Assembly: GCA_016699995.1 (NCBI GenBank)
Contig: CP064996.1
Location: 690,963-754,962 of the forward strand
Reading direction: 5' to 3'
DNA: 64,000 bases
Source of the DNA: a bacterium
Lineage (GTDB): Bacteria > Patescibacteriota > Doudnabacteria > UBA920
Shown here: piece by piece, positions 6,797-40,519 of the stretch
How positions within the stretch are numbered: the first letter of the stretch is position 1
Layout: each line of letters opens with the position of its first letter
Notes under the pieces: generated by a model
Told to the model about the DNA's origin: nothing
What the model saw: only the letters and a program-made list of their open reading frames with translations
The model's database searches: none
Translations under genes and position numbers: made by a program

Positions 6797-6801
6797 TTAA
6801 A

Positions 6802-6826
6802 AACCACTAACTAAATGTTAGTGGTT
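6802..6826. terminator. Bidirectional hairpin terminator; copy A of the recurrent AAACC(A/G)CTAAC...GTTAG(T/C)GGTTT element.
   Basis: Perfect 10-bp stem aaccactaac / gttagtggtt with loop taaat, followed by a T-rich run. It lies between convergent genes ending at 6796 and 6830. Confidence 0.7.
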
Positions 6827-6829
6827 ATT

Positions 6830-7447: not shown

Positions 7448-7544
7448 ACAGCCCTCCTTAGCTGGTCTTCAAACATCTAATAGTGCCAGAAAATGGCTTA
7501 TCTGTCAATGCTTTTTTCAGCAAGAAGTTCGCTATACTGAATAT

Positions 7545-8546: not shown

Positions 8547-8580
8547 ATGGCAAAATAAAAAAGGTGTCCTACACGGACAC

Positions 8581-9519: not shown

Positions 9520-9699
9520 ATTTCCTCCTCTAAGCTGCGGTGTCTAAATTATGACGTCCGCCGACTTGCGGTCATTATATAGTTTATTTCAATTTTGTCA
9601 ACTCGAACTGACAAAACCTACAAGCCCCATGCATTGACAAATACCACCGCATGTGGTATTTTTCTAAGTCTTTATGCAAGACCTTAAGGAGGATAGTAA

Positions 9700-10257
9700 A
9701 TGAAAAGATTGTTGTTTTTGGTAGTAGCGCCCATCGCTTTGCACAGGAGCATCATGGATAAAATTACAACTGGCTTTAAAAACCACTGTCAGTCGCTTTC
9801 GGTGATAACTGCTGAAGCTCTGGAAGAGATTGAGCCGTACCTGAATGGTACAATCAACATCGATCGGGACTCTACGGCGCTGATCTGCACCGACCAGGTT
9901 CTGGAACCCAGGCAATATGTCTATAAAGACGTTCTCTGTGCTCCTATCCATGCAAAAGCCAACTTCGAATCGGAAGTCTGTGAAGAGCATTCAACCTGCT
10001 GGGACTGGATCATCCAATTCATCAGCAGGGATCTTAAGCTCATCAAGCACCGTGATCCCCAGCCGCACGTTACCAAGCGCCGGCCAGGCAGAGTACTCAT
10101 CGGTGATGATCCCGACAAGATGGGATCAGCCGGAATTAACAACGCCCCAGGCGTGACAGCAACACCGCGCACGCCGAACCCGCAGAGACTGGACACCCCG
10201 CAAACAGTTACGGCCGAGGAGCGCGATGCGCGCAATAACGCATCCAACTGCGCCTAA
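9700..10257 (+). CDS. Hypothetical protein with a low-complexity C-terminus.
   Basis: AAGGAGGA at 9685-9692, ATG at 9700. The overlapping minus-strand ORFs lack an RBS and translate to low-complexity sequence. Confidence 0.45.
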   Translation: MKRLLFLVVAPIALHRSIMDKITTGFKNHCQSLSVITAEALEEIEPYLNGTINIDRDSTALICTDQVLEPRQYVYKDVLCAPIHAKANFESEVCEEHSTCWDWIIQFISRDLKLIKHRDPQPHVTKRRPGRVLIGDDPDKMGSAGINNAPGVTATPRTPNPQRLDTPQTVTAEERDARNNASNCA

Positions 10258-25687: not shown

Positions 25688-25996
25688 TTATTTTTTAGGA
25701 GTATTTTTGAATTTATCTGTCTGGCTCTTATGGTACAAAGATGAAGCTGCAACGAAAGCTATTACTAAAAGCACAGCGGCCCCCAACCAATACCATGTGG
25801 TAGTTGGTATGCTCTTTGACTCTTCGAATTGAGGAACACTCTGGATTTGCTCATCTAAAATAACTCGATTGCCGCGAGCGCTTTCCGGGCGGTCATCCGA
25901 AGCCGCCGGTTGCAATACCGACTGAGACTGGTCCGAAGACTGGTCTGTACTGCCTGGATCGCCAGGGGTGATAGTTTGTATTTGGGCGATTTTCAT
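25688..25996 (-). CDS. Small membrane protein (102 aa).
   Basis: C-terminal TM helix WYWLGAAVLLVIAFVAASSL; 8 nt upstream of the glycerate kinase gene. Confidence 0.45.
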   Translation of the reverse strand: MKIAQIQTITPGDPGSTDQSSDQSQSVLQPAASDDRPESARGNRVILDEQIQSVPQFEESKSIPTTTWYWLGAAVLLVIAFVAASSLYHKSQTDKFKNTPKK

Positions 25997-26028
25997 ATAT
26001 TTAAATTATTTAAGATTAAAATTATTTA

Positions 26029-27837
26029 TTATTCCACGATAATATAAGTACCGGCAACTTTAGCCCAGCTCCCCCCAGGACCGCTGTTAAAGCTTTCGCT
26101 AATCAAGCCGCTATCGTAAGTAAGGCTCGCACCGCCATCCATAGTAATCTGCTTGCCAGTGACTGCCTTAAGCGAACTTCCCCCATTAATGCGCACATTA
26201 CCGTTTTGCGCCACGATCGCTACAGCACCCGCACCTCCAGACAGATAGATGGCATCATTACTCCCGCAACCAGGAGCTACAGGGCACGCACTAGTTGTAA
26301 TAAGAAAGGGGTAGCTTCCTGCCGTACCTGACCCGGCAAAGTTAGACCCTCCAGCGACGTTGATCCACCCGTCAGAAACAATTGCGCCACTATTACTGCC
26401 ATACGATGAATCTAAGCGGACCGTACCGCCGCCGCCGGTTGTAATATTTCCTGTTACCCACAGAGTACCTGTTACAGTTAATGTACCGCCGCCGCCGACC
26501 GTCAAGTTGCCGTTAATCTTTTTTGGCCCGATCGTGGCGCCTTGCCACCCTACGTTATAGTCTCCATTATGAACGCCGCCGGATTCCGCGTCTTCCTTCC
26601 AGTTCTCTATGTTGCCATCGGACAACGGCATTGGCTGAGGGGTTGGGTCCGGCCTGCTAGTATTACAGGCTTTATTAGTATAGCTGGAAGTTTGACAGTA
26701 CAGAGGACCAGAAACAGTAGCCCCCATCACATTATTAGCCCAAGCCAAGTCGGTACCAGTCGTTCCAACATACACTCCAGTATTATAAGTATTACCGCCG
26801 ATCATGGAGGTGCCGCCACCTAGATAAATTTGGAAGTAGCCGTCTAATCCGGAGGGGGATGTGTTAGCCCAGGTACCCGCAGATTGTCGGCCAATTTTAG
26901 CAGTACCATTAGCATAGCTAGTATTGGCGCCAATGATGTAGTAATTAGAGGCATTGGAAGAACCATCGAGAACTATCCAATATGTCTGAGAAGGCTCTAA
27001 AATTGGGGTGGGCGGCATAGTTACATTTACCCATCCAAAGTTAGTGGTAACACTGGCAGCGGATAAAGTAGCGGACATCAAAGTAGTACTGCTCGGACTT
27101 CCTGAGTTGTCTGTGACAATGCGAAGAGTTGAATTTGAAGGCGAACCATTTTTTCGTATATATAGAGAAATATAATTCATTCTTTCCGAGTCAGAAACCC
27201 TAAAGCTCTGCGCAAAATCTTCCGTCGCGGTTGCATTTCCATATGTTATGCAAGTAGAGCTCGAACAGCTGGAAATCGGCGTCGGACTGTTATTAGACTG
27301 ATCAGCAAAAGTTGCCGGGGGGTTGGCGGCCGATGCGCTGCCCGTAATGCGAACGCCGGTTGTGGCATTAATAGTACCGTTCGAATAAACATTACCGTTG
27401 ATTGTCGCGCCGCCGGTCATCACAAAACCACCAGAGCCAGCCTGAACACCATAATTAAAGGAGATAACTGTAGAGTCGATCCCAACGCGAACTTTTACTG
27501 TGATCTGTGAAGTCGGATTAGTGCTATTTGGAATATATGCAGTGGAGGTAACTTGCTTATTAGTCGCATCAATATTTGTCACAGTAGTCGTGTAAGTCCC
27601 TTCGCCTATAGCCACGTTGCTTTCCCCCACGAAAGAAGTATTTTGATTCAGCTCATACACCGCCTTATCCAAACCAGCCTCTGCCATATGCAGCAGCTGG
27701 GTATTGGATACTGCCTGCTTGCTGGATTTAATCTGCACAGTAGTATAACCCCAAACTACTCCCGACATGGTCATAAGCACGGCCATAATGACCAGGCCGA
27801 CAAGCATTACATATCCTTGTTGTTGTGTTTTTTCCAT
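26029..27837 (-). CDS. PilX-like type IV pilus-associated protein (602 aa; N-terminal TM helix and a Gly/Thr/Ser-rich probable beta-helical body).
   Basis: MLVGLVIMAVLMTMSGVVWGY...QLLHMAEAGLDKAVYEL fits the PilX_N (PF14341-like) pattern. It lies downstream of the two prepilin genes. Confidence 0.55.
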   Translation of the reverse strand: MEKTQQQGYVMLVGLVIMAVLMTMSGVVWGYTTVQIKSSKQAVSNTQLLHMAEAGLDKAVYELNQNTSFVGESNVAIGEGTYTTTVTNIDATNKQVTSTAYIPNSTNPTSQITVKVRVGIDSTVISFNYGVQAGSGGFVMTGGATINGNVYSNGTINATTGVRITGSASAANPPATFADQSNNSPTPISSCSSSTCITYGNATATEDFAQSFRVSDSERMNYISLYIRKNGSPSNSTLRIVTDNSGSPSSTTLMSATLSAASVTTNFGWVNVTMPPTPILEPSQTYWIVLDGSSNASNYYIIGANTSYANGTAKIGRQSAGTWANTSPSGLDGYFQIYLGGGTSMIGGNTYNTGVYVGTTGTDLAWANNVMGATVSGPLYCQTSSYTNKACNTSRPDPTPQPMPLSDGNIENWKEDAESGGVHNGDYNVGWQGATIGPKKINGNLTVGGGGTLTVTGTLWVTGNITTGGGGTVRLDSSYGSNSGAIVSDGWINVAGGSNFAGSGTAGSYPFLITTSACPVAPGCGSNDAIYLSGGAGAVAIVAQNGNVRINGGSSLKAVTGKQITMDGGASLTYDSGLISESFNSGPGGSWAKVAGTYIIVE

Positions 27838-27838
27838 A

Positions 27839-28413
27839 TTAACGGTTTCTTAAGAATATAGTATCTGTAGCGCGAGCAGTAGCTGCACTAGTATTACGGG
27901 TAGTTACTCTGGTCTGCAGATCTATAGTCACTGCGGTGGCTGCAGTTACATCGCCATTATTATAAGTTAGGGCAAAAGTTTGAACGTTCTCCGCAAGACG
28001 TTTTGATCCCGGAATGCGAACGCTGCCGCTACCGGCCTCCGTGACCTGATTAACAGAACCACTGGTTAAACAAAAAGCCATATAATCAAAAATTCCGCTT
28101 AGCAAGTTTCCGCTGCCATCCAGGCCTGGAATCTTTACCACAACACAATCGTTGTCAGTGCTATAAGATGTGCCGGCAATCGTGCGTGGAAGTTTTCTAT
28201 ATTACTGGCCTGGGCCACATACTTACTCATATTATTCATCGTGCTGCGTACAGAACTTGTAGCGCGCACATCTGCTTGCTCTAGTATGAATATCTTCTGA
28301 TGCCAGTCAAACAAGCTTAACAGAGCTACCAGAATAATAGCGAACAGCGCTATCACTATCACCACTTCCATTATAGTAAAACCTTGTTGCTGGCTCGTAC
28401 CTTTATGATTCAT
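27839..28413 (-). pseudogene. Prepilin-type (class III signal) protein split into two ORFs by a frameshift near 28196-28210.
   Basis: The 28135..28413 ORF starts MNHKGTSQQQGFTIMEVVIVIALFAIIL, with the G/FTxxE cleavage motif. The 27839..28141 ORF starts with GTG and its frame stays open upstream as YRKLPRTIAGTSYSTDNDCVVVKIPG..., so the two are one ~190-aa pilin. Confidence 0.55.
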
Positions 28414-28826
28414 TGCCCCAGCCCTCCCTCGGTAATGTAGGTTTGCAACTCTACCGAATTATTGCCGTTACTGCGGGAATTGCTCCATGTAACTCTCACT
28501 GTAACATCCTTTAAGGTGTCGTTTACGTCTACGACAGTAATGTTGCCTGCGCCGCTTGGGATAGATGACATTAGCGAATCATTGAATGTTCCGGTACTGG
28601 GAATAGAATCAAAGTCGGTAGTACGGATTGACTGCATTTTTTGGTCGGCAATGCGAGTCGCGATCTCTTTGTAGCGCGCTTGTTTGTTCAATACTACAGA
28701 ATTGGCGCTCATCTGAAGCAGTACTAAAGTAAGCCCGATGATGAACAGGGTCACCACGACTTCGATAATAGAAAATCCTGATTGTGTTTTTGTGGAATTT
28801 TGAAGACGCACTTTTGTTTCGTACAA
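28410..28826 (-). CDS. Prepilin-type N-terminal cleavage/methylation domain protein (type IV pilin / pseudopilin).
   Basis: TQSGFSIIEVVVTLFIIGLTLVLL. Its 4-nt overlap (ATGA) with the next pilin gene indicates an operon. Confidence 0.7.
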   Translation of the reverse strand: MYETKVRLQNSTKTQSGFSIIEVVVTLFIIGLTLVLLQMSANSVVLNKQARYKEIATRIADQKMQSIRTTDFDSIPSTGTFNDSLMSSIPSGAGNITVVDVNDTLKDVTVRVTWSNSRSNGNNSVELQTYITEGGLGQ

Positions 28827-28990
28827 TTAGTTTCTCTCTATTATATTAGCAGTTTTTAGCCGAAAAATCATGACCGAATAGCGTTTCTATTGATTATTTA
28901 GACGACTTTTGCTAATATAGCTAAGTACTTGGCGAAGTTGTGGGCCATATTTAATGGCTCTAAGCCCGCCTGGTAAGGAAAATTAAATAT

Positions 28991-29065
28991 TCGGGAGTAG
29001 CTCAGCGGTAGAGCTATCGGCTGTTAACCGATCGGTCCTGGGTTCGAATCCCAGCTCCCGAGCCA
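28991..29065 (+). tRNA. tRNA-Asn (anticodon GTT), with encoded CCA.
   Basis: Hand-folded cloverleaf: acceptor tcgggag / ctcccga, D-stem gctc / gagc, anticodon stem atcgg / ccgat with loop ctGTTaa, T-arm ctggg-ttcgaat-cccag, discriminator g, then cca. Confidence 0.9.
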
Positions 29066-29189
29066 ATCAAAATGCATCTCTTCAAAAGAGGTGCTTTTTG
29101 ATTTATTTATAGTACCTTTCGCAGGTCTAAAAACTTTTGTCGACAATTTGCTTTAACGGAGCTATTATTTAATTAATTAGCGCTTATAA

Positions 29190-29972
29190 ATGCTGTATTT
29201 AGACCAAAGGGATACCTACATTAATAGTGTTTTAGACAAATACAAGACAAACGGTCTTACTGTTTTTCTAAGTCCCACTGTCGCTTATATAATTAACCCT
29301 ATCAAGGCCATAGTAAGTACGTGGGCTGGAGGCCAATTAAAGGCGATCGAGTTATCAGGCTCTTTTGCCAAGGGAACGGCAACAGCCCTGTCTACAGATG
29401 CTGACCTGTTTATTTCTTTAAAATCGGACACCACTCAAAGTCTTAAAGATATTTATAAGATGCTCTATAACAGAATGAAAGCCAACGGTTACTCTGTAAG
29501 GGAGCAAAATGTATCGATAGGTGTGACTGTTAATAATTTTAAAGTTGACCTTGTTCCAGCCGTTCATAGAGGAGGTCTGACCAGAGACCATTCTTTATAT
29601 CGTAGAAAGGCTGACACTTGGACGCAAACCAATATTTATAAGCATATTGACTTGGTAAAAAATTCAAAGCGACTAGATGAGATCAGGGCTTTAAAAATAT
29701 GGAGAACACTTAATGGACTAGATTTTCCTTCATTCTATCTTGAACTTACAGTGATTGAAGCACTAAAAGGACACGGATTTAACAAACCAGGGCAAAACTT
29801 ACTTACAGTGCTGGATTATATTGCAAACAAATTTACTTATGCTCGCGTTGTTGATCCTTCGAACACAAATAATATTATTTCAGATGAACTTACGGCAGGA
29901 GAAAAACAGACTATAGCGAACTTGGCGAAAAACACACGCCAGAAACAATATATGAAAGATATTATCTGGTAA
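29190..29972 (+). CDS. Pol-beta superfamily nucleotidyltransferase with SMODS / CD-NTase-like motif spacing (260 aa).
   Basis: SGSFAKGTATALSTDADLFI gives the GS-x10-DxD motif. The third acidic residue is in NFKVDLVPA, about 45 aa downstream. The C-terminal ~120 aa are helical. Weak RBS; low-GC context. Confidence 0.55.
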   Translation: MLYLDQRDTYINSVLDKYKTNGLTVFLSPTVAYIINPIKAIVSTWAGGQLKAIELSGSFAKGTATALSTDADLFISLKSDTTQSLKDIYKMLYNRMKANGYSVREQNVSIGVTVNNFKVDLVPAVHRGGLTRDHSLYRRKADTWTQTNIYKHIDLVKNSKRLDEIRALKIWRTLNGLDFPSFYLELTVIEALKGHGFNKPGQNLLTVLDYIANKFTYARVVDPSNTNNIISDELTAGEKQTIANLAKNTRQKQYMKDIIW

Positions 29973-29974
29973 AT

Positions 29975-30718
29975 ATGGCAAAGAAGAAAATAAGTATAAA
30001 AGAAATATTTGCAGGGCTCCAAGATCAAATGGAGGCGCGGTTAACATTGAACAAAAAAGTTCTAAACCATCCCGTAACAAAAGGCGATGCGTCTGAATTG
30101 GAGTGGTTAGATATGCTTAGGCATTATTTACCGCGAAGATATTGCGTTGATAAAGCCTTTGTCATAGACAACAAAGGCAACATAAGCGAACAAATAGATA
30201 TTGTTATTTTTGACCGTCATTATTCGCCATTTATCCTGCATCAAAACGGGGCTATTTATATCCCAGCAGAATGTGTCTATGCAGTCATAGAAGTAAAGCC
30301 CACTATTAGCACTGCAACAATTGAGTACGCCGCAAAAAAAGCTGCATCTGTAAGGAGATTGCAGCGTAGCAGTGCTAAAATCGTACAGGCTGATGGAAGA
30401 GAGTTTGAACCTAAAAAGGCACCTAGGATTATTGCTGGGTTATTAGCAATAGATGGCAATTGTAGTAACGCGGCCTTAAACAAGCTAAAAAAGATGAATG
30501 AGACGCAGCTGATAAATATGGGATGCGCTCTCAGCGGCACATTCTTTAATGTTTTAGATTATAAACCTTGGGGAAAGCTAAACAAGGCTAGAGATTACCA
30601 AGTAAAAAATAACGATAGGAATAGTTTGATATTATTCTTCTTAACATTAGTTAAAGAACTGCAAAAAATGGGTACGGTGCCAGCCATAGAAATTGGTACG
30701 TATTTAGATAACCTATAA
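29975..30718 (+). CDS. PD-(D/E)xK (Hjc/restriction-endonuclease-like) nuclease domain protein with a C-terminal domain of unknown function (247 aa).
   Basis: E in ASELEWLDML, D in QIDIVIFD and E-x-K in YAVIEVKPT, with canonical spacing. The start ATG lies 2 nt after the stop of the NTase gene. Confidence 0.55.
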   Translation: MAKKKISIKEIFAGLQDQMEARLTLNKKVLNHPVTKGDASELEWLDMLRHYLPRRYCVDKAFVIDNKGNISEQIDIVIFDRHYSPFILHQNGAIYIPAECVYAVIEVKPTISTATIEYAAKKAASVRRLQRSSAKIVQADGREFEPKKAPRIIAGLLAIDGNCSNAALNKLKKMNETQLINMGCALSGTFFNVLDYKPWGKLNKARDYQVKNNDRNSLILFFLTLVKELQKMGTVPAIEIGTYLDNL

Positions 30719-30931
30719 AGATATGCCCGTAGTTGAACTAAAAGGCACTGAACCAACTCCAGAAAAATAGCTGAAGAAATCAAAAGGATTTTTTCCGATA
30801 CAAATGGTTGCTTTGGAAGAATAAACTCCTGGGGACAGAGACCTACCAAGTATGTTTACATTGGATGTGTTTCTGATACTGATTTTATTGATTTTATAGC
30901 TAGCCTTAATGACGACCAACGGAAAGGCTTA

Positions 30932-31465
30932 ATGAGAATGCTTTCCTATTTTGAGATACATATGGAGCCGCTTAAAAGCATATTAGAAAGTCATACGGAA
31001 ATGTCTTTAGATAGGTTTTACGCGGAAACAGCCTGGTCACACTTTGCCATAGTAATTATGTTCGGTCTTTTAGAAGTAGCTGTAAAGGTGGGTAAAGGTA
31101 TAGCCATCGAAGACTTCTTGGGTGATAAAGGCAGAGAAATTAAAGCTTTTTTTGTTAAGTATTTAGATGTTGAGAGGCAAACAAAAATTGCTGAAGACTA
31201 TAAACCGATTGATGATACAAGAAAATTAACGACTTTCGAAGATGTGGTACAAGATATGTGGGATGAATACCGATCAGGTTTCGTACATTCAGTGGGCGTT
31301 CATTCTGTACCTCACGAACCAGTTTCTTTCGGTGATGGTGGAGAAAAGGACGGTATTCCAGTAATAGCAATAAGCAAAGAGGTTCCTGTATTTACTTGGC
31401 TAATTATTACTTGGCAGGCTATTTTTAAGTCCTTAGGTTTCAAAGGTAACTTAAATTCAAATTAA
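30932..31465 (+). CDS. Hypothetical protein (177 aa).
   Basis: Complete ORF in the low-GC island; I recognise no family. Confidence 0.4.
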   Translation: MRMLSYFEIHMEPLKSILESHTEMSLDRFYAETAWSHFAIVIMFGLLEVAVKVGKGIAIEDFLGDKGREIKAFFVKYLDVERQTKIAEDYKPIDDTRKLTTFEDVVQDMWDEYRSGFVHSVGVHSVPHEPVSFGDGGEKDGIPVIAISKEVPVFTWLIITWQAIFKSLGFKGNLNSN

Positions 31466-31476
31466 CAAAAAATAAT

Positions 31477-31884
31477 ATGGAAACTAAAGCTCAAGATTTT
31501 GTCAGGAATGAAATGTTAAAAAACGAAAATAGGATTTTTGTTGGCAAAATTATAACTATCTCGGTTTTTTATTTGGTCATTACGCTCCTACTAAATCACA
31601 TACGTACCACTGCATCGTTATGGATAGTATGGCCGTTGATAATAATTCAATTTGTATTGTATTTCTCCATTTTTGTCGCGACTATTTCACGTGCTAAAGT
31701 CTTCGGACTAAAAAATTGGTCAGCATTTATAATCTTTCTAGTATTGGCTGTACTAGGTAGAATAAATGACTGGGAAATGATAATTATCCCAATAACCGTT
31801 TTGGTTATGACCATACTTTCCGTAATGAACAAGAAGCTATCGGCACAAGGTCAATTTATATTGATGCCAAAAAACGAACAGTAA
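31477..31884 (+). CDS. Hypothetical 4-TM membrane protein.
   Basis: Strongly hydrophobic, very AT-rich coding sequence; 11 nt after the previous gene. Confidence 0.5.
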   Translation: METKAQDFVRNEMLKNENRIFVGKIITISVFYLVITLLLNHIRTTASLWIVWPLIIIQFVLYFSIFVATISRAKVFGLKNWSAFIIFLVLAVLGRINDWEMIIIPITVLVMTILSVMNKKLSAQGQFILMPKNEQ

Positions 31885-31908
31885 GATATAAACCATTAAC
31901 TTTTAAAT

Positions 31909-32328
31909 ATGAAGGCTATAAAACAATTTTTCTTGGCTTTATTTAGCGCCTTGGCCGCCTTAGGACTTTTTGCTGCATTCGTAGGTTTCATAAATGGGTA
32001 TTTTGGATATAATGCAGGGATGTTTTCTGTGTGGATTTTTCTAGGCTTATTCTTCGTCTCAGTAATTTACTTCAATTATCGAGACAAAAGCTTACCCGCA
32101 ACAACTAATATTAAGAACCTTTCTACGGAGGCTGTTAAAGGCGGGTTTAAATTCGTAAAAATAGTTTCTTTAACTTTTGCCATATTAATCGGAATAATAA
32201 TTAGTATAGGTGCATTCATTTATATCGCTGCTCAAATTGGTAAATTAGGGGCTTTGGGAATAATTATAGTCCTTTTGATAATAATTATATTTCAAATCTC
32301 TAGCCTACTACAGAGACTGGATCAATAA
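31909..32328 (+). CDS. Hypothetical 4-TM membrane protein.
   Basis: Hydrophobic segments. Followed by copy B of the hairpin terminator. Confidence 0.5.
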   Translation: MKAIKQFFLALFSALAALGLFAAFVGFINGYFGYNAGMFSVWIFLGLFFVSVIYFNYRDKSLPATTNIKNLSTEAVKGGFKFVKIVSLTFAILIGIIISIGAFIYIAAQIGKLGALGIIIVLLIIIIFQISSLLQRLDQ

Positions 32329-32368
32329 AGTACGTTCTAACATCGCTCACAACTCGGAGCCATCAGAA

Positions 32369-32398
32369 AACCACTAACTCGTTTAGCGGTTTTTTGTT
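32369..32398 (+). terminator. Hairpin terminator, copy B of the recurrent element.
   Basis: aaccactaa-ctcgt-ttagcggtt (one A.C mismatch) followed by ttttttgttat. Confidence 0.65.
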
Positions 32399-32409
32399 AT
32401 GCTTAGGTT

Positions 32410-33117
32410 ATGATTAGAAAAATTCCGTCTAATGCTCGCTACAGGGCTGAGCACGACTGGCTTACAACCTACCACCTGTTCTCCTTTGCCATGTACTTTG
32501 ACCGAGGCAATATGAATTTTGGCGCACTCCGGGTTTTTAATGACGATTACATAGACGGCGAAAACGGTTTCGGCGCGCATCAACACGACAACATGGAGAT
32601 TGTTACCATTATCCATGAGGGCCGGCTTACTCACCAAGACAGCCTTGGCAACACAGGCATAATTAGCAAAGGCGAAGTTCAGTATATGTCAGCGGGAACA
32701 GGGGTAACGCACGCCGAAGTGAATCAGGAGAAAGCTCCAATACACTTATATCAAATTTGGATAATGCCGGATGAGCAAAATTTGCCGCCTCAATATGCAC
32801 AGAAGGATTTTAGCAACATAGAATCAAATGCCCTCGTACCGGTTGCCTCCGGGCAAAACCTGCCAGGCGCAATTCCAATTCGCACCAACTCCACCATATA
32901 CCTTTCTAAGCTCGATGCAGGGCATGCTATAACACACCGGCTCGAACCTGATCGCGGACTGTTTGTTTATATCAAAGAAGGATCTTTGGAGATCAATGGT
33001 ACCCAGTTTGCAAAGGAAGACCAGGCTAGAATAATGGATGAAGACCTGGTCCTAATAAAAACAAATGGGAATACTGAATTCGTTGCTATTGATGTGCCAA
33101 TGAGGCTGCCTATTTAG
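32410..33117 (+). CDS. Pirin-family cupin protein (quercetin 2,3-dioxygenase-like, YhhW-like).
   Basis: FGAHQHDNMEIVTIIHEGRLTHQDSLGN...GEVQYMSAGTGVTHAE matches the pirin metal-binding motifs. Confidence 0.85.
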   Translation: MIRKIPSNARYRAEHDWLTTYHLFSFAMYFDRGNMNFGALRVFNDDYIDGENGFGAHQHDNMEIVTIIHEGRLTHQDSLGNTGIISKGEVQYMSAGTGVTHAEVNQEKAPIHLYQIWIMPDEQNLPPQYAQKDFSNIESNALVPVASGQNLPGAIPIRTNSTIYLSKLDAGHAITHRLEPDRGLFVYIKEGSLEINGTQFAKEDQARIMDEDLVLIKTNGNTEFVAIDVPMRLPI

Positions 33118-33178
33118 CAATTACGGCGTTTAGAATATATAATATAACTGTCGATACTATATTATAGTAAACAAGCAT

Positions 33179-33373
33179 ATGCGCATTACATCTGGTTTCC
33201 AAAAACTGATGCCTTCCATTTTAAGCGGTGCAGCAGGAATTGCTATGCTTATTTATGGAGTGAATAGTAGCAAGTCCCAAATCCAAATCTTCGGGCTAGT
33301 TATCTTCATAGTCTCAATGGTGATTATGATGAGAACCAGACGAAGGATTGCATGTGATATAAAAAATAATTAA
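33179..33373 (+). CDS. Small membrane protein (64 aa).
   Basis: Two hydrophobic segments. Low confidence. Confidence 0.3.
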   Translation: MRITSGFQKLMPSILSGAAGIAMLIYGVNSSKSQIQIFGLVIFIVSMVIMMRTRRRIACDIKNN

Positions 33374-33382
33374 TCTACCAAT

Positions 33383-33860
33383 ATGACAAACAAAGAATTT
33401 TTCTTGGAGACATTAAAAGAAGAGGTGCAAAAGTTTCGGGTAGCTATTGATGCTTTGCCGGACGACCAGCACGGATACAAGGTTCATGACCGCGCCCGTA
33501 CGGCAGTAAACTTAACTGCCCAGCTGGCTGTCCAATGGAAAGCCATGTCCGGAATTATAAACAACGGTACGCCTGACTTTAACCCTCACGATATGGACGA
33601 CCAATCTAAGGCGGATATGCTGGCTAAATTTGACGGGAAGCATCGCGCAGCTGCAAAAGGACGTTGGAGCTATTTCCGACGCAGAGTGGGAATCTGGAGA
33701 TGCGGCTATGGGCGAAGAATGGAAGGATAAGAAATTTAAGATGGTATGGGGATTCTTTTTCGATGCGATCCATCACCGCGGACAGCTTGCTACCTACCTC
33801 CGCGCAATGGGCGCAAAGGTTCCTCCTATCTACGGACCATCCGCCGATTCGCAAAATTAA
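33383..33860 (+). pseudogene. DinB/YfiT-family (DinB_2-like) metal-dependent protein, interrupted by a +1 frameshift near 33630-33660.
   Basis: The N-terminal part is the 33383..33730 ORF. The C-terminal part in the next frame carries the hallmark FFFDAIHHRGQLATYLRAMG. Together they make about 160 aa. Confidence 0.55.
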
Positions 33861-33895
33861 AAAGTTTTGTCCCGCAATTTATTAGCCTGATCTAA

Positions 33896-33926
33896 AACCG
33901 CTAACCAGTTTAGCGGTTTTTTGTTA
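33896..33926 (+). terminator. Hairpin terminator, copy C of the recurrent element.
   Basis: aaccgctaa-ccagt-ttagcggtt (perfect) followed by ttttttgttat. Confidence 0.7.
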
Positions 33927-33936
33927 TCATTACTGT

Positions 33937-34410
33937 ATGAAAAACAAATACGTTCGATTCATTGTTTCTATAATTATCCCCCAGCTCGCTGGCGGCATCG
34001 GTTCCATCTTTACCTCATCTAAGATCCCGACCTGGTACGCATCAATTCAGAAGCCGGCGCTTAACCCGCCTAATTGGGTTTTCGGCCCGGTATGGACTAC
34101 CCTCTTCCTATTGATGGGTATTGCGTTTTATATCGTTTGGACAAAAGGCCGACAGGGAACAAACATCAAAGCCGCGACTGCGATTTTCATTGTTCAACTA
34201 ATAGTAAACACTTTTTGGTCTATCGCATTTTTCAACTTCCAAAGCCCGTTCCTGGCCCTGGGAGTAATTGCCGTGCTGTGGATACTGATCTTAATAAACA
34301 TCGTTCTTTTCTACCGGGTTTCCAAGACGGCAGGGTTATTGCTGATCCCTTATCTATTATGGGTGTCTTTCGCAACCTACCTCAATTATTCAATTTGGAG
34401 ATTAAACTAG
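33937..34410 (+). CDS. tspO: TspO/MBR family tryptophan-rich sensory protein.
   Basis: PPNWVFGPVWTTLFLLMGIA...LWVSFATYLNYSIWRLN; 5 TM helices; an intact ORF. Confidence 0.85.
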   Translation: MKNKYVRFIVSIIIPQLAGGIGSIFTSSKIPTWYASIQKPALNPPNWVFGPVWTTLFLLMGIAFYIVWTKGRQGTNIKAATAIFIVQLIVNTFWSIAFFNFQSPFLALGVIAVLWILILINIVLFYRVSKTAGLLLIPYLLWVSFATYLNYSIWRLN

Positions 34411-34414
34411 TTTG

Positions 34415-34719
34415 ATGAAAGCTCGCATTTCCAGCGGCACAGCCCACACTGTTCCGCCTGATTTAAAAAGGCCTTAACTTAAGCTCCAAGGCCTTAGCTG
34501 CCTGGAACGACCTCACTCCCCTGGCCCGCAACGAATGGATCTGCTGGGTTACTTTTGTTAAAAAACAAGAAACCAGAATAGACCATGTTAAGCGCACCGT
34601 CATTCATTTAAACGAAGGTAAGCGCCGCCCCTGCTGCTGGATCGGCTGTCCGCACCGCAAAGACAAACCGGTGAGCCCATCGGTAAAATCTATTCTGGCA
34701 CTATCTAAGAAAATATAAT
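34415..34719 (+). pseudogene. YdeI/OmpD-associated family (DUF1801-like) protein with a frameshift in an A5 run (34465-34469).
   Basis: MKARISSGTAHTVPPDLKRP* is followed in the +1 frame by KGLNLSSKALAAWNDLTPLARNEWICWVTFVKKQETRIDHVKRTVIHLNEGKRRPCCW.... Removing one A restores a continuous family-typical sequence. Confidence 0.5.
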
Positions 34720-34721
34720 TA

Positions 34722-34752
34722 AACCACTAACCAGTTTAGTGGTTTTTGTTAT
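34722..34752 (+). terminator. Hairpin terminator, copy D of the recurrent element.
   Basis: aaccactaa-ccagt-ttagtggtt (perfect) followed by tttgttattat. Confidence 0.7.
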
Positions 34753-34782
34753 TATTTATCTATAACATTAACTCGAAATAAA

Positions 34783-35142
34783 ATGAAACAAGGATCATAT
34801 GTGGATGGGTTCGTTATCTCCATCCCAAAAAAGGCAGTGCCAAATATAAAGAAAATTGCTACTGGAAGCATGCGCGGTATGGAAGAAGTTCGGCGCGTTG
34901 GACTACAAAGAATGCAAAATTGATGATGCTGCTCCGAAATATGTAACCTTTACCTTTGCTAAGATGGCAAAAACCAAGCCGACCGAAGACGTGTGGTTCT
35001 CTTTTATTACCTTCAAGTCCAAAGCACATCGCAACGAAGTAAATAAAAAGTCATGGCTTTCTTCGATAAAAAGTACGGTGACAAAATGGATATGCCGTTC
35101 GACATGGAAGCAGCTTCTCCTATGCCAGGCTTCCAAAGTTGA
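34783..35142 (+). pseudogene. DUF1428-family protein carrying two compensating frameshifts, near 34868 and near 35045-35049 (an A5 run).
   Basis: Frame 1 gives MKQGSYVDGFVISIPKKAVPNIKKIAT. Frame 2 gives EACAVWKKFGALDYKECKIDDAAPKYVTFTF...FKSKAHRNEVNKK. Frame 1 then resumes with VMAFFDKKYGDKMDMPFDMEAASPMPGFQS*. Confidence 0.5.
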
Positions 35143-35206
35143 AGTGGGAATGTAAACAACGCTCACAAAACACGGCGAAAGCAGCATTGCTATCATTAAC
35201 CAAAAC

Positions 35207-36112
35207 TTGTATGCAAAAATTATTCCCCACCTATGGTTTGATACTCAAGCCAAGGAGGCAGCAGAATTTTATACTGCTTTGTTTCGGACTCTCGGGTAAA
35301 AATACCACCACCTTACATAACACGCCCTCTGGCGACTGTGACATTGTCACTTTCAGTGATGGGATACACCATTATGTGCATGAGTGCAGGGCCAGCATTC
35401 AAAGTTAATCCATCGGTATCGTTCATGGTGAATTTCGACCCTTCCCGCATAGAGAATGCCAAAGAAAAACTGGATCAAGTATGGAAAAGGCTTGCTGATG
35501 ACGGAAAGATCATGATGCCGCTGCAAGAATACCCTTTTAGCAAACATTACGGCTGGGTAGAAGATAAGTTCGGTGTTTCCTGGCAACTAATGCTAACGGA
35601 TCCGTCTGGTGATGAACGGCCAAATATTATTCCTTCTATGATGTTTATAGGGGAAAATTATGGCAAAGCCCGCAGAGCTACAGATTTTTATCTTTCTGTA
35701 TTCAAAGACACGGAACGGGGCACTATCGCCACCTATCCGGCAGGCATGAAACCAGACACAGAGGGTAACATTATGTTTACCGATTTTAAATTAGAAAAAC
35801 AGTGGTTTGCAGCCATGGATAGCGCGCGAATGCATGACTTCAACTTCACCGGAAGCAATTTCCTTTATCATTAATTGTAAAGACCAGGAAGAAATGGACT
35901 ATTACTGGAACAAGCTCACCGCGATACCAGAGTCCGAACAATGCGGCTGGCTTAAAGATAAGTACGGATTCTCGTGGCAAATCAACCCAATAGAAATGAG
36001 TGAGATGATGGAAAAAGGAACACCAGAACAAATTGACCGAGTTACCCAGGCTTTTTTGCCAATGAAGCGCTTAGATCTGGCAACGCTCCGCCAAGCTTAC
36101 GAAAGAAAGTAG
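35207..36112 (+). pseudogene. Duplicated PhnB-like VOC-superfamily protein (PF06983-like, ~300 aa) interrupted by three +1 frameshifts.
   Basis: The four segments in successive frames read KIIPHLWFDTQAKEAAEFYTALF, then GKNTTTLHNTPSGDCDIVTFS, then MGYTIMCMSAGPAFKVNPSVSFMV...[17 protein letters not shown], then [22 protein letters not shown]...[14 protein letters not shown]. Each is family-typical. Confidence 0.55.
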
Positions 36113-36150
36113 CTTAATGTTATACTTAATCTAGTAATTAACATAAATTT

Positions 36151-36735
36151 ATGGATTGGCATATAGTAGCCTTAGCAGGGCATTTAATTGGCTTCGCACT
36201 TGGAGCTGGAGGGGCAACCATCAGCGACATCACCTTTCTTAACGCAATTCGCGAGCGAAAATTATCAGCAGAGCAGCACCGCTTTCTGATGATGATCTCT
36301 AAAGTAGTATGGCTGGGATTCATTTTACTGGTAATCTCTGGGGCGGCAATGTTTGCTCTTATATACATAGAGAACCATTCTCTGCCGATGCTCGCTGCTG
36401 CCCGATGGCAGGCAAAACTGACATTAGTCGGAATTGTATTGATTAACGGTATATACTTTAAAGTCAAAGTCTTTCCAGCGCTAAAAAACATGGTTGGCCA
36501 GGAGCTAAATCACAAGAGTATTGGCGTGAGCTTATGGAGGCTCGCCGTGCCTGGCACTATTTCTATCTTATCCTGGTATAGCATCCTAGTATTGAGCATT
36601 TTACCGCGAGGATTAAATATTCCCCTTGGGTATTTTATCTTCATTTATGCAGTGCTGCTGATTTGCGGAATTATCATCAGCAAAACTTTGCTAAAAAAAC
36701 TGCTGGGCAATTACAGTTTGTCTCTCCATAACTAA
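36151..36735 (+). CDS. Hypothetical polytopic membrane protein (194 aa).
   Basis: Six hydrophobic segments; intact ORF. Confidence 0.5.
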   Translation: MDWHIVALAGHLIGFALGAGGATISDITFLNAIRERKLSAEQHRFLMMISKVVWLGFILLVISGAAMFALIYIENHSLPMLAAARWQAKLTLVGIVLINGIYFKVKVFPALKNMVGQELNHKSIGVSLWRLAVPGTISILSWYSILVLSILPRGLNIPLGYFIFIYAVLLICGIIISKTLLKKLLGNYSLSLHN

Positions 36736-36778
36736 ACTGCCAAACAAAATTCTACTCTGATCAAGAAATAATTTAAAA

Positions 36779-37044
36779 ATGACCTTCTTTTATATCGCAG
36801 TTGTGTTGATAAATCTGCTCGCCTTTGCGGTAATCGGCTCAGATAAAAAGCGCAGCATCAATAACGGCGAACGCGTTAGCGAAGTAAACTTATTTTTTGT
36901 GGGCCATATTTTTTTGGCTCTGCAGGGGTGTTGCTGGGCATGCTCGCTTTTAGACATAAGACTCAAAAACTCAAATTTATTTTTGGCATCACTATTCTGC
37001 TGCTGCAGCAAGTGATTACTTTTTACCTGCTTTGGACAAAATAA
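36779..37044 (+). pseudogene. DUF1294-family small membrane protein with a frameshift in a T7 run (about 36911-36917).
   Basis: MTFFYIAVVLINLLAFAVIGSDKKRSINNGER... The alternative frame then gives GPYFFGSAGVLLGMLAFRHKTQKLKFIFGITILLLQQVITFYLLWTK*. Confidence 0.5.
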
Positions 37045-37065
37045 AAAACCGGCCCAAAAGGCGGT

Positions 37066-37510
37066 TTTTATTTTAAGTGGTTTTGCTTTAGAAAGTAGAG
37101 TCTCCTTAAGGTCAACCGTAATGGCCATGTTTAAAGCTTCTGTGAAAGTAGAACCCATAGCCCGTTTCCGAATATCCTTTAATTCGGAGTTGTAACCGAT
37201 TAAATCCACCACGATGCCTTTGTTGGTTTTAAAAGCTTTCATAGAGTTCCCCCGGCATATCCATGACGATAAGAACCCTAGGTTGTCCCCAAACTTCAGA
37301 AGCTCGGAAAAGTTTTTCCACATCTTTGAAAAATTTGGAACAAGCTCTATTGGTTTTCTCCAACATGGTGCTCGCTAAGGTGGACCACTCTGCGAAAATT
37401 TCTTTTCCATCGTGGGTATCGATGCGCATAACCACATCACGCGCTGAAGATGACCAAGCTTTCAATATTGCTCCCTGGCTAATCGCCAAGTCAATCCCTT
37501 CTAATTTCAT
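37066..37510 (-). pseudogene. Hypothetical protein (about 145 aa) with probable frameshifts at a C5 run (about 37246-37250) and an A-run near 37069-37072.
   Basis: The 37229..37510 ORF (MKLEGIDLAISQGAILKAW...) continues in the next frame as RGNSMKAFKTNKGIVVDLIGYNSELKDIRKR...LSKAKPLK. That frame otherwise reads through the 37046-37065 terminator hairpin into antisense DUF1294 sequence. No plus-strand RBS. Confidence 0.4.
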
Positions 37511-37632
37511 ACTTCCTCCTAAGTTAAGCTAGCTGGTTATGATACCTAAAAAGAGGCCGTATGTCAACTTCCTGATTTTGACCCATCTATCAAAATCCAG
37601 TACTATTAAATTAGCAATTAAACATTTTTATT

Positions 37633-38156
37633 ATGGACTCTCAACAAAACCATGGTCAAAACCACGGGCACCATGACCAAACCAAACATCACGAACCAAA
37701 GAGCACCTTAACCGGCTTGGAAGGTTTCTTCGACACTTACTTGCGCGAAAAGGCTCCTTTTCAATTCCCGCCAAATGCCCGCGAATGGATCGTAAAGTAT
37801 GGTCCCTGGATTATGCTGATTTTCGTGATCCTCGGCGCCCTAATCCTCATCCCTGCAACGCTAATCGCCCTTGGCCTGACTGCAGTGAGCGTCCCATTCG
37901 CTGCCGCAACAGGCAATCTTGGCCTTACCGGTCTAGGCGTAATCAGCTTGCTGCTAAGCGTAGTTGTACTGATTATGGGAAAGCAGTGGCCATCCCTGCT
38001 TTAATAGAGCGCAAAATGTCTGGCTGGCAATTAGCTTATTATGCCTCCCTGCTGTCCGCCGTGAGTTCGTTATTAATGATGAGCATCCTCGGCGCAGTTA
38101 TCGGTTTAGCTATCAGTATGTATATTTTGTTCCAAATCCGCTCCTACTATAAATAA
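37633..38156 (+). pseudogene. Small membrane protein with a His-rich N-terminus, split by a frameshift near 37980-37995.
   Basis: MDSQQNHGQNHGHHDQTKHHEPK... then TM helices. The C-terminal part continues in another frame (...AVAIPALIERKMSGWQLAYYASLLSAVSSLLMMSILGAVIGLAISMYILFQIRSYYK). Confidence 0.45.
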
Positions 38157-38419
38157 TTTATTAAAATAATATGAAAGTGAAAGTTGAACAACACTTCTTT
38201 TCCGGAGGCCTCTGGATCGCAGCCTGGCTGTTTACCATCGGCTCCTTAGGACTATCTTTCGGACAAGGCGTCCTGGCTATCCTGCTATGGCAGTTCTACC
38301 TAGGCCGACACTTTGGTCCATAAGACAAACACCTCGCCCAGATGGCGAGGTGTTCTAATTTAGCTGGGCTTTACAGAAACATTTGAAAATGATAACATTC
38401 AAAATCAAATGGAGGACAT

Positions 38420-39067
38420 ATGAACTTAATCTTACCCGTCGATTATGTGAATCTCTCTTCTCTTAAGAGAATTAACCCGCGCGTATACTTCCTGGCCGGG
38501 CCGATAATGGGAGGAGATGACTGGCAAGCCAAGGCCTGCAAAATGCTGGGTGAAAAAGATCCCGGCTGTGTAATTATCAACCCGTGCAGATATGGAGTCG
38601 ATCACGAACTGTACCCCTACGCACTACAAACCACCGACAATCTTAAAAGCGAAGAAATCTTCCCTAACCAAACTAAGTGGGAGCGTTATTACATGCTTCA
38701 GGCGGCATCAAAAGGCTGCCTAATCTTTTGGCTGCCGGAAGAAAGCAAGACTGATCCCCGACCACCAGAAAAAGGGCCCTATGCCCGGGACACTTATGGT
38801 GAAATCGGTGAGTGGCGATATCGCCTGAGCCAAAAACGCGAAGCAGAAAGACCATGGGTTCCGGAACACGAAGTCAAGGTAGTGTTCGGAGCTGAACCGA
38901 ACTTTCCAGGACTAAGCATTATCAACAAAAACTTGCAGTACTGTCATGGCATAGAACCTAATAGCGAAAGAGAACAGGTCCCCATCTATACTACCCTCGA
39001 GGAGACTGTAGAAATGGCAGTAATGATGGCAAAAGGCGGACACCGTTTCGCTGGAGCACAAATTTAA
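38420..39067 (+). CDS. Nucleoside 2-deoxyribosyltransferase-like (flavodoxin-like fold) protein; a tentative call.
   Basis: VYFLAGPIMGGDDW...CLIFWLPEES...DTYGEIGEW loosely resembles the Nuc_deoxyrib_tr / DNPH1 pattern (YLAGP ... D.GT..E.G.A). It lies next to the NAD-salvage cluster. Confidence 0.3.
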   Translation: MNLILPVDYVNLSSLKRINPRVYFLAGPIMGGDDWQAKACKMLGEKDPGCVIINPCRYGVDHELYPYALQTTDNLKSEEIFPNQTKWERYYMLQAASKGCLIFWLPEESKTDPRPPEKGPYARDTYGEIGEWRYRLSQKREAERPWVPEHEVKVVFGAEPNFPGLSIINKNLQYCHGIEPNSEREQVPIYTTLEETVEMAVMMAKGGHRFAGAQI

Positions 39068-39148
39068 AACGAGCAGTAAGCTCGTTTTTTTTATTTGCCT
39101 GCTTATTCACCTTGGTCGTAGTTTTCCAGATAAGTAGTTAACTGGCGA

Positions 39149-40519
39149 TTAACTCTGATAAAAGTAGCTCGCTTTGGAAATTCCTTGAGCTGGCGAGCGC
39201 CGATGTAAGTACCAGTACTGCGCAAGCTGCCGAACAGTCTTATACGTGCCGTTGTCTAGGACCAGCTTCAGCCGGCCGGCTTTCGACCTTTTACCAGGAT
39301 CCGTCACTGGATCCTTGTAAACGTCGCTCCAGATACCGCCGTTGCGAACTGCCGAGGCTTTGAAAGCAAACTTCATGGTATCGCGATCAACCTTCTGCAG
39401 CAAGCCGCCGCCCGATCCAAATGCTACGTTATCTGCAGACCACTTGCTAGCCTTCATGGCTTCCAGAATGGTTCCAAGCATGGGATGGGTAATGCCATCG
39501 CCCTGGATAACCCGAACTTTCGGATTAAGCAGCTTGTAGCCTTTGTCGTTGTAAGTGAAGCCGAAGCGCTCTCCCAAAATGTCGAGAACTTTAACCACGA
39601 CTTCCGGAGGATAACCGCTGTCGGGCCGGACGACTAGAACGCCGTCTCGGTCGAGAACCATTTCTTTCAGCTTATTACCCCACAACTCACGGCAAGCATA
39701 AAACACATCATAGCTGTCGCTAACCACAGCAACCAAACCTGTCGGAAAAGAAGCCAGCATATTCGCATAAGCTCCCTCTTCTCGATTGCACCCCCACGAG
39801 GTAATCGTGCTGTGTTCCGCAGCTGGAATCGAAAATCCGGCCATAGCTTCGTGATAATACTTAGCTGCCAGAGTGACTGCGGCCATGGTATCGGTTCCCT
39901 TAAAATTAATTAAGTGAGCCGCACCGCCAATCGCAGCCGATTCGTCCGAAGTGCTGCCGCGATAGCCAAAGTCATGAAGCTTGAAGTCGATCAAGGCAGG
40001 GTCGCCAGTTTCGCGAAGCGCCCGCATGATCAATTCGCGCATAGCACGGCTCTGGGTAGCGACAGTGATTGGATACCAGATCTGGCACAGGATCGTTTCT
40101 AGATAGTTAGTCAGCCAAGGCACCTTGGGATCGGTGTTCTCGACTGTCATAAGCACATTAGAAACAGGCATAACTGATCCTTCGGGAACAGCTTTGATCC
40201 TTATCGGTAAGCGGCCATTGTGCTTGTCGACAATGTGCTGCCAACCCTCTTCGTTGAACAGGGTAGCATCGCCAAAGTGCTGAGCAAAAATTTCCCGCGC
40301 TTCAACAATATCTTCCTGAGTCACAACTACACCCTCTAAGTGGCGCTTGATCAAATACTGCAGGCCGAAGAAAACAGCTTGCGGAAATATTCCGCCGCGG
40401 CTTTCCAAAAAAGAGAACACAGTCGATGTATTCGGAGGATACTGCCTCCAGTGACTAACCTTATAGCTGTCGCTCATTAGAATTATGTTTTCGTGTTTTC
40501 TGTTTAACATGATATTCAC
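39149..40519 (-). CDS. nadV: Nicotinamide phosphoribosyltransferase (NAMPT).
   Basis: FGYRGSTSDESAAIGGAAHLINFKGTDTMAA closely matches the NAMPT active-site region; 456 aa. Confidence 0.9.
   Translation of the reverse strand: MNIMLNRKHENIILMSDSYKVSHWRQYPPNTSTVFSFLESRGGIFPQAVFFGLQYLIKRHLEGVVVTQEDIVEAREIFAQHFGDATLFNEEGWQHIVDKHNGRLPIRIKAVPEGSVMPVSNVLMTVENTDPKVPWLTNYLETILCQIWYPITVATQSRAMRELIMRALRETGDPALIDFKLHDFGYRGSTSDESAAIGGAAHLINFKGTDTMAAVTLAAKYYHEAMAGFSIPAAEHSTITSWGCNREEGAYANMLASFPTGLVAVVSDSYDVFYACRELWGNKLKEMVLDRDGVLVVRPDSGYPPEVVVKVLDILGERFGFTYNDKGYKLLNPKVRVIQGDGITHPMLGTILEAMKASKWSADNVAFGSGGGLLQKVDRDTMKFAFKASAVRNGGIWSDVYKDPVTDPGKRSKAGRLKLVLDNGTYKTVRQLAQYWYLHRRSPAQGISKASYFYQS

Follow-up and report, generated by a model that had tools for sequence, protein, structure and literature searches.

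A probable two-gene type I CBASS on a genomic island at the 3′ end of a tRNA-Asn gene in a Patescibacteria chromosome

Two adjacent genes in a 64-kb window of a Patescibacteria chromosome (the window is the whole stretch of DNA that was analysed) appear to constitute a type I, i.e. two-gene, cyclic oligonucleotide-based antiphage signaling system (CBASS), on an island of 3.3 kb that was acquired by horizontal transfer and inserted at the 3′ end of a tRNA-Asn gene. A probability of about 0.9 is given to this reading. Gene 1 (positions 29190–29972, forward strand) encodes a CdnC/CdnD-like CD-NTase (cGAS/DncV-like nucleotidyltransferase) of 260 amino acids (aa), the CBASS oligonucleotide cyclase. 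Gene 2 (29975–30718, forward strand) encodes the 247 aa effector NucC, with a predicted activity as a DNA endonuclease activated by 3′3′3′ cyclic tri-AMP (cA3 or cAAA). A first-pass annotation of this DNA had proposed a minimal type I CBASS on an acquired island, and PADLOC matches, solved structures and the pairing of the two genes in 74 of 80 loci agree with this. It had also taken the pair to be an unnamed architecture of a nucleotidyltransferase (NTase) with an Hjc-like nuclease. In this it was mistaken: gene 2 is NucC, and the pair is represented in PADLOC and has been phage-tested.

Gene 1 encodes a CD-NTase

Gene 1 aligns with the PADLOC Cyclase model PDLC00803 at positions 3–253 of the 253 in the model (E-value = 4.8e-88), and ten further PADLOC cyclase models are matched as well. 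The match to the Pfam SMODS family (E-value = 4.7e-7, 30.6 bits) is above the gathering threshold of 26.5 bits. Sequence searches of the PDB show the closest matches to be BcCdnD (9sa4, E-value = 1e-9) and the E. coli MS115-1 CdnC (6p80, E-value = 9e-8).

An alignment of 21 homologues was used to build an AlphaFold2 model, which displays a predicted local distance difference score (pLDDT) of 89.5 and a predicted template modelling score (pTM) of 0.85. A Foldseek search of the PDB with this model gives EcCdnC and PaCdnD as the best hits, with E-values of ~1e-12 to 1e-10 and template modelling scores of 0.70–0.78, and all of the top 25 matches are CD-NTases. Structure prediction, which had been suggested earlier as a check, thus places gene 1 among the CD-NTases with CdnC/CdnD first.

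The active site consists of G57-S58, D70, D72 and D120, with a spacing of GS-x11-DxD. The same 21 homologues all have D70, D72 and D120, and nearly all of them have S56-G57-S58 and K61. The NTase motifs reported in the first-pass annotation are therefore sound, with the correction that the spacing is x11 and not x10.

The first position of the XGSX motif has been related to the product formed. Enzymes that synthesize cA3 have Ser or Thr at this position (SGSL in EcCdnC, SGSY in BcCdnD, TGSY in PaCdnD), and those that make cyclic AMP-AMP-GMP (cAAG) have QGSI (PMC13424991). The gene 1 motif is SGSF, with Ser first. This motif, the nearest relatives and the cA3-specific partner NucC suggest that the product of gene 1 is most probably 3′3′3′ cyclic tri-AMP.

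The Pol-beta NTase core is also common to AbiEii and MNT proteins, and gene 1 shows weak matches, confined to the core, to PADLOC PDC-S09 and Pfam NTP_transf_2. With gene 3 of the island being perhaps HEPN-like (see below), the two genes might be thought to form an NTase/nuclease toxin-antitoxin or abortive infection (Abi) module, AbiEii-like or MNT-HEPN-like, that does not act by signalling. This is extremely unlikely. Pfam and PADLOC give no AbiEii/DUF1814 match at E ≤ 1, the similarity to CD-NTases extends in both sequence and fold through the C-terminal helical half, i.e. the complete CD-NTase fold is present, and the partner is a NucC with an intact predicted cA3 pocket. Of the two affiliations considered earlier for gene 1, the CD-NTase match holds and the AbiEii alternative is abandoned.

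Gene 2 encodes NucC

Gene 2 matches the PADLOC Endonuclease (NucC) model PDLC00745 from end to end (E-value = 6.5e-86, 286 bits), and Pfam DUF6602 with an E-value of 8e-32. The solved NucC structures 7zgv, 6p7o, 6p7p and 6uxf are matched over almost the whole length (E-values 2e-45 to 7e-43). The NucC structures matched include those of E. coli MS115-1, Vibrio metoecus, P. aeruginosa and Serratia, the Serratia protein being the top match (E-value = 2.3e-45). Pfam and PADLOC profile searches, another check that had been proposed, thus identify gene 1 as a CBASS cyclase and gene 2 as a NucC nuclease.

NucC homologues also occur in type III CRISPR loci (bioRxiv 10.1101/694703), and the PADLOC CRISPR-type NucC model (E-value = 5.6e-55, 185 bits) and cas-associated PD-DExK models match gene 2. 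Gene 2 could on this basis be an accessory of a type III CRISPR system with an NTase gene next to it by chance. This carries hardly any weight against the 286 bits of the CBASS model, the lack of a CRISPR-like array anywhere in the 64-kb window and the adjacency of NucC to the cyclase in 74 of 80 loci. The NucC proteins of type III CRISPR from Vibrio metoecus and Serratia (6uxf, 7zgv) belong to the same family and share the mechanism of a cA3-activated DNase, but their signal comes from Cas10, whereas the window has an adjacent CD-NTase.

In the E. coli NucC (Ec NucC) the active site is IDx30EAK, that is D73, E104 and K106, and the contacts to cAAA are made by R53, Y81, T226 and V227 (bioRxiv 10.1101/694703). 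The corresponding catalytic residues of the window NucC are D75, E106 and K108, offset by +2, and the segment I74-D75...E106-V107-K108 aligns without gaps to positions 72–106 of Ec NucC. The predicted ligand contacts, as obtained from the alignment, are R55, Y83, T234 and V235.

Conservation was counted over 74 NucC proteins that are paired with the short cyclase family (described below). D75, K108, Y83 and T234 are present in all 74, E106 and R55 in 73, and V235 in 58. E41 is also kept in 73 of the 74. The PD-(D/E)xK residues that had been assigned to gene 2 by eye (E41, D75, E106 and K108) are thus confirmed, and the proposed check of catalytic residues across homologues shows conservation in both the cyclase and the NucC families. 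Gene 2 does not, on the other hand, have a C-terminal domain that forms a sensor by itself, as had been thought possible. The cA3 pocket of NucC lies at the trimer axis and is made of both N-terminal and C-terminal residues (bioRxiv 10.1101/694703).

Pairing of the two genes and assignment to type I CBASS

The window cyclase belongs to a family of short cyclases. There are 2421 homologues at E < 1e-5, and nearly all have a chain length of 250–254 aa. In a survey in which one genome per species was scanned, 233 cyclase relatives were obtained and 80 loci were kept, and all open reading frames within ~5–6 kb on each side of the cyclase were clustered. The loci are from Bacillota, Alpha- and Gammaproteobacteria, Acidobacteriota, Chloroflexota, Patescibacteria and a metagenome-assembled genome (MAG) of Bathyarchaeia. 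NucC is directly downstream of the short cyclase in 74 of the 80, usually at a distance of ~10–80 nt. In the window the two genes are co-oriented and 2 nt apart, in agreement with the start of gene 2 that had been reported.

The only recurrent clusters are the cyclase itself, in 80 loci, and NucC, in 75. All others consist of shadow open reading frames over the cyclase or NucC genes, or are sporadic, e.g. type I restriction-modification genes and recombinases. There are no accessory genes of type II, type III or type IV CBASS at the locus, and no third family recurs in the 80 loci. PADLOC detects no HORMA, TRIP13, Cap2 or Cap3 in the window. The locus, with a cyclase, a single adjacent effector and no accessory genes, thus corresponds to a type I CBASS by the accepted definition.

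Several observations weigh against this reading. Gene 1 scores 62 and 48 bits with the NCBIfam models CBASS_cyclase_a and CBASS_cyclase_b, for which the cut-off is 200 bits. The gene 1 cyclase is therefore outside of these curated subfamilies, as its scores do not reach the equivalog cut-offs. The gate loop of NucC (residues 136–146, nt positions 30380–30410) is atypical, with Q138 and a one-residue insertion at F144. In Ec NucC a latch is formed in this loop by H136 and Y141, and mutation of H136 abolishes activation (bioRxiv 10.1101/694703). The position of the His latch is occupied by His in 52 of the 74 paired NucC proteins and by Gln in the window. The Serratia NucC (7zgv), which is cA3-responsive, displays Asn at the aligned position, and so the latch, as judged by alignment, is variable within the family and is no strict criterion for it. 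In Serratia, a NucC acts together with type III CRISPR.

A two-gene operon of this kind, XpCdnC03-NucC, has been found experimentally to restrict phages (Richmond-Buccola et al., bioRxiv 10.1101/2023.05.21.541620). As in the window, a CD-NTase gene is followed by an adjacent, co-oriented NucC gene and there are no accessory genes; the likeness is one of gene arrangement. Unlike the characterised type I CBASS with NucC, the window locus is in a host of the candidate phyla radiation (CPR), its NucC is without the usual His latch, and three unrelated cargo genes are in the same apparent operon.

The type III CBASS of E. coli MS115-1 (6p80, 6p7o-q) and P. aeruginosa ATCC27853 provide the closest cyclase structures, and their NucC proteins match gene 2 with E-values of ~1e-44. 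The catalytic and cAAA-contact residues of NucC are all identical, and cA3, the signal predicted for the window, is theirs as well. These systems have HORMA and TRIP13, both of which are missing from the window, and the window cyclase (260 aa vs. 300–321 aa) is only ~20% identical to EcCdnC and PaCdnD. As there are no HORMA/TRIP13 genes here, activation of the window cyclase cannot use HORMA binding.

EcCdnC and PaCdnD, the nearest solved cyclases, are from HORMA/TRIP13-regulated operons, the window cyclase is shorter than these by ~40–60 aa, and the NucC gate loop is atypical. From this the locus might be viewed as a decayed type III CBASS (CdnC + HORMA + TRIP13 + NucC) whose regulators have been lost, so that it no longer works or is deregulated. 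Such an origin is very improbable. The short cyclase is a large conserved family of its own, for which a dedicated PADLOC model of 253 positions exists, NucC is its sole partner in 74 of the 80 loci without a recurrent third gene, and the catalytic residues are intact. If short (~250 aa) CdnC/D-like cyclases work without HORMA and TRIP13, they offer a compact model for the sensing of infection by a minimal cyclase.

BcCdnD (9sa4), the closest PDB sequence, resembles the window cyclase in the Ser-first XGSX motif. It makes cA3, and its product activates NucC in vitro (PMC13424991). BcCdnD, a 340 aa protein, belongs to a type II CBASS of Bacillus cereus, acts together with Cap2/Cap3 and a Cap4 effector, and is under the control of conjugation; the window displays none of these features.

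The type I CBASS of the window is an instance of a defence system that is already classified and is characterised both structurally and functionally, and as such it adds little beyond cataloguing. On the other hand, a CBASS of the predicted abortive infection type is here kept in a CPR genome of ~0.94 Mb, where every kilobase has a cost. Many defence systems have been described in CPR genomes in a defensome survey (PMC12259885); a search of the literature for CBASS specifically in Patescibacteria yielded only general surveys of this kind.

The cyclase and NucC pair is also present in the archaeal MAG of Bathyarchaeia (L017) and in two viral contigs of IMG/VR (L115 and L116). A wide horizontal spread of the pair, including viruses or proviruses, is indicated. 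In five loci (L013, L038, L049, L070 and L072) the short cyclase is present and tblastn gives no match to NucC. Another locus, in a Patescibacteria MAG (L062, positions 6651–10155), has a short cyclase homologue of 47% identity without NucC behind it. A 445 aa open reading frame with NTase-like motifs comes before this homologue, and a 449 aa open reading frame on the opposite strand that is serine recombinase-like comes after it (both by eye). L062 may represent a different effector arrangement.

Proposed mode of action

By analogy with characterised homologues, phage infection would lead the 260 aa CD-NTase to make a cyclic oligonucleotide from ATP at its GS...DxD...D active site, the signal being most probably cA3. 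One cA3 molecule would occupy the three-fold pocket of a NucC trimer, and two trimers would then associate to a hexamer, which would cleave double-stranded DNA regardless of its sequence. Destruction of phage and host DNA would abort the infection, either by killing of the infected cell or by loss of the phage genome. The trimer-to-hexamer switch, the abortive outcome and activity in the present host are predicted from these homologues. For other type I operons, late virion-assembly proteins have been indicated as escape loci (bioRxiv 10.1101/2023.05.21.541620).

The genomic island and the tRNA-Asn 3′ end

The tRNA-Asn(GTT) gene is at positions 28991–29065 of the forward strand and includes an encoded CCA; the ARAGORN prediction agrees with the coordinates given before. 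The segment that follows it, 29066–32398, has a GC content of 36.1%, compared with 45% in the rest of the window, which was used as the baseline. The GC profile is at 0.34–0.40 across 29000–32400 and at 0.42–0.50 on both flanks. This is the lowest-GC 3.3-kb stretch of the window (the lowest elsewhere is 42%) and its strongest tetranucleotide outlier. The AT-rich region that had been seen by eye was thus recovered by the GC and k-mer profiles that the first-pass annotation had called for. Low GC, overall and at third codon positions, is common to all five genes of the island. The island is flanked by the tRNA, pilin-like genes and a pirin gene, and the window is chromosomal, with genes for RpoD, DnaG, ribonucleotide reductase and NAPRTase. 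Among named organisms, RpoD is closest to that of Candidatus Doudnabacteria (94% identical) and of 'Patescibacteria group' (87%), and the host is therefore assigned to the CPR.

Comparison with two short-read contigs from sample SRR11674018, L001 and L082, reveals a population variant of the locus. L082 matches the window at positions 25898–29065, including the whole tRNA, and then continues into a gene for a 554 aa large serine recombinase. In L001 the island is joined at 29060 to DNA that is unrelated, and GAGCCA is all that the two junctions have in common. In this sample a serine recombinase element (L082 positions 1–1951; L001 positions 1–2814) is situated exactly between the tRNA-Asn 3′ end and the CBASS island, and the window is the form without the element. 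At its other end, in L001, the element carries a PRK-like kinase and other open reading frames.

Two relatives show different cargo between tRNA-Asn and pirin. In L084 (pirin 80% identical) there is synteny on both sides, and the slot holds genes for a membrane protein, Hsp20, DUF368 and a YdeI-like protein. In L085 (pirin 76% identical) it holds a dehydrogenase and two methyltransferase genes. CBASS is absent from the slot in both. It had been asked earlier whether tRNA-Asn is followed directly by pirin in related genomes; a clean empty site is found neither in L084 nor in L085, where other cargo is present. In both, the far end of the inserted DNA is marked by a repeat of the tRNA 3′ end, which matches at 19/19 nt in L084 and, at a distance of 3.2 kb from the tRNA, at 14/16 nt in L085, and which has a hairpin and T-run of its own behind it.

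The serine recombinase variant in L082/L001, the differing cargo in L084 and L085 and the copies of the tRNA end thus mark the tRNA-Asn 3′ end as an integration hot spot, and this supports the island reading. With a deviant composition, a flanking repeat (decayed) and absence from relatives, 29066–32362 is a tRNA-adjacent genomic island. A well-resolved hot spot whose cargo differs from one relative to the next could be of aid in finding mobile cargo in CPR genomes.

At positions 6169–6388 of L084, 183 nt past the tRNA, the tRNA-Asn 3′ end is repeated over 19 nt without a mismatch and is followed by a near-duplicate of the post-tRNA hairpin, i.e. a tandem scar of attachment site (att) type that encloses almost no cargo. 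The tRNA-Asn gene of the window has no intron. In L084 (5506–6187) and L085 (261–891) this gene is split in the anticodon loop, between nt 34 and 35, by a group I intron of ~560–610 nt (Rfam RF00028, 59 bits) with a 102 aa HNH-like open reading frame.

Borders and signals of the island

The integration point is the GAGCCA at the tRNA 3′ end (29060–29065). The five island genes, all in the same orientation, are bounded by terminator-like hairpins on the left and right. The left end is a hairpin with a T-run at 29066–29102 of the forward strand (fold −17.1 kcal/mol, z = −5.7, equalled by 0 of 200 shuffles), which includes a terminator scan match at 29074–29094. It travels with the island in L001. 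The best match to a sigma-70-like promoter (TCGACA-17-TATTAT, 10/12) is at 29140–29168 of the forward strand, 22 nt before the cyclase start codon; it is a consensus match only, and the total of such matches does not exceed that in shuffled sequences.

The right border (32332–32362, forward strand) contains a degenerate repeat of the tRNA 3′ end, with ctcgGAGCCA at 32353–32362 compared to ctcccGAGCCA at the tRNA. The 25 nt located 5′ of ctcgGAGCCA resemble the right end of the serine recombinase element in L001 (GTTCTAAC-N17-GAGCCA). The resemblance, 14/25, is the highest of 32 GAGCCA sites, the next being 13 and 12, and taken alone it is weak. As position and architecture match the att-type scars of L084 and L085, an att remnant at this border, as proposed previously, is plausible in spite of the weak similarity of the sequence by itself. 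The extent of the island is therefore 29066–32362. There is no integrase gene within it.

Immediately beyond is a terminator-like hairpin with a T-run (32364–32396, forward strand; fold −12.1 kcal/mol, z = −2.8), which probably served as the native terminator behind the tRNA until the island was inserted. A 27-nt hairpin, AACCRCTAAC-NNN-GTTTAGCGGTTTTTT, is present twice within 1.5 kb, at 32369–32395 and 33896–33922, with 3 mismatches and 0 matches expected by chance. It could represent a terminator element that recurs in the genome. The near-copy at 33896–33922 bears out the earlier statement that the island ends at a copied hairpin.

Genes 3–5

Contig L001 (13 kb) aligns to window positions 29060–39237 with 99.6% identity and 27 gap openings, of which many fall within homopolymer runs; gap sites are at 30763, 33361, 33635 and ~25 more up to 38000. 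At 30763 the window has A5 and L001 has A6, and this splits the reading frame of gene 3 in the window. The DinB gene downstream of the island (33383–33860) is likewise split into two open reading frames. The homopolymer-rich gaps and the split gene 3 and DinB point to a long-read assembly with residual indels, and the 30763 indel is most likely an assembly error. Other apparent pseudogenes in the window deserve distrust, given these probable indels.

In L001 gene 3 is intact, encodes 247 aa and begins 4 nt past the NucC stop, and it is probably intact in reality (30723–31465, forward strand). The open reading frame in the window at 30932–31465 is only its C-terminal part. Five co-oriented genes had been described and their coordinates in the window are correct; gene 3 as a 177 aa gene after a gap of 213 nt is not. 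With correction for the indel the gaps between genes 1 to 5 are 2, 4, 11 and 24 nt. This spacing suggests that the five genes probably form one transcript, which would end at the hairpin at 32364–32396.

The operon-like spacing, the low GC shared by all five genes and weak HEPN-like hints in gene 3 could suggest a five-gene composite system in which genes 3–5 would serve the CBASS signal as additional effectors or as regulators. There are known CBASS operons that have a second effector, e.g. VvCdnG09-CapV-Cap5 (bioRxiv 10.1101/2023.05.21.541620). A composite system is nevertheless improbable. Genes 3, 4 and 5, like the pirin gene, are found in none of the 80 cyclase loci, and no PADLOC model, including HORMA, TRIP13, Cap2 and Cap3, matches genes 3–5 at E ≤ 1. 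In addition, the best homologue of gene 3 (P0122, 49% identical) is alone among genes for L32, NusB and HU, i.e. housekeeping genes, and neither CBASS nor homologues of genes 4 and 5 accompany it. Absence from all 80 loci places genes 3–5 outside of CBASS; they are passenger cargo, probably co-transcribed, and not conserved partners or components of it.

Gene 3 is an orphan. A word-indexed search yielded four relatives, and an exhaustive search of 1.84 billion proteins yielded 27 representatives. The family displays a nearly invariant R-x-x-F-x-H (Rx4H) motif. There is no match to gene 3 in Pfam, PADLOC or PHROG, and a profile of the family gives only noise against PDB sequences. The predicted structure shows a weak resemblance to HEPN proteins, and a HEPN-like fold is possible. 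A hidden HORMA protein was considered, as the size is Cap7-like, and was rejected; even the 247 aa form has no PADLOC match and the model is mostly helical.

It is also doubtful, if somewhat less so than a composite CBASS, that genes 3–5 (30723–32328) represent a small defence or toxin module that has not been described, consisting of a HEPN-like Rx4H protein and two proteins with four transmembrane segments each. Should this be so, the module within the CBASS transcript would be either an independent abortive infection unit or a second cA3 output.

Gene 4 (31477–31884, forward strand) encodes a small membrane protein of 135 aa, for which a Kyte-Doolittle plot shows about four hydrophobic segments and which has no family match. 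Gene 5 (31909–32328, forward strand) encodes another, of 139 aa, with only sub-threshold Pfam matches and four hydrophobic segments by the same measure. The first-pass annotation had listed two proteins with four transmembrane segments among the small genes, and the hydrophobic segments of genes 4 and 5, both cargo of the island, are in accordance with this.

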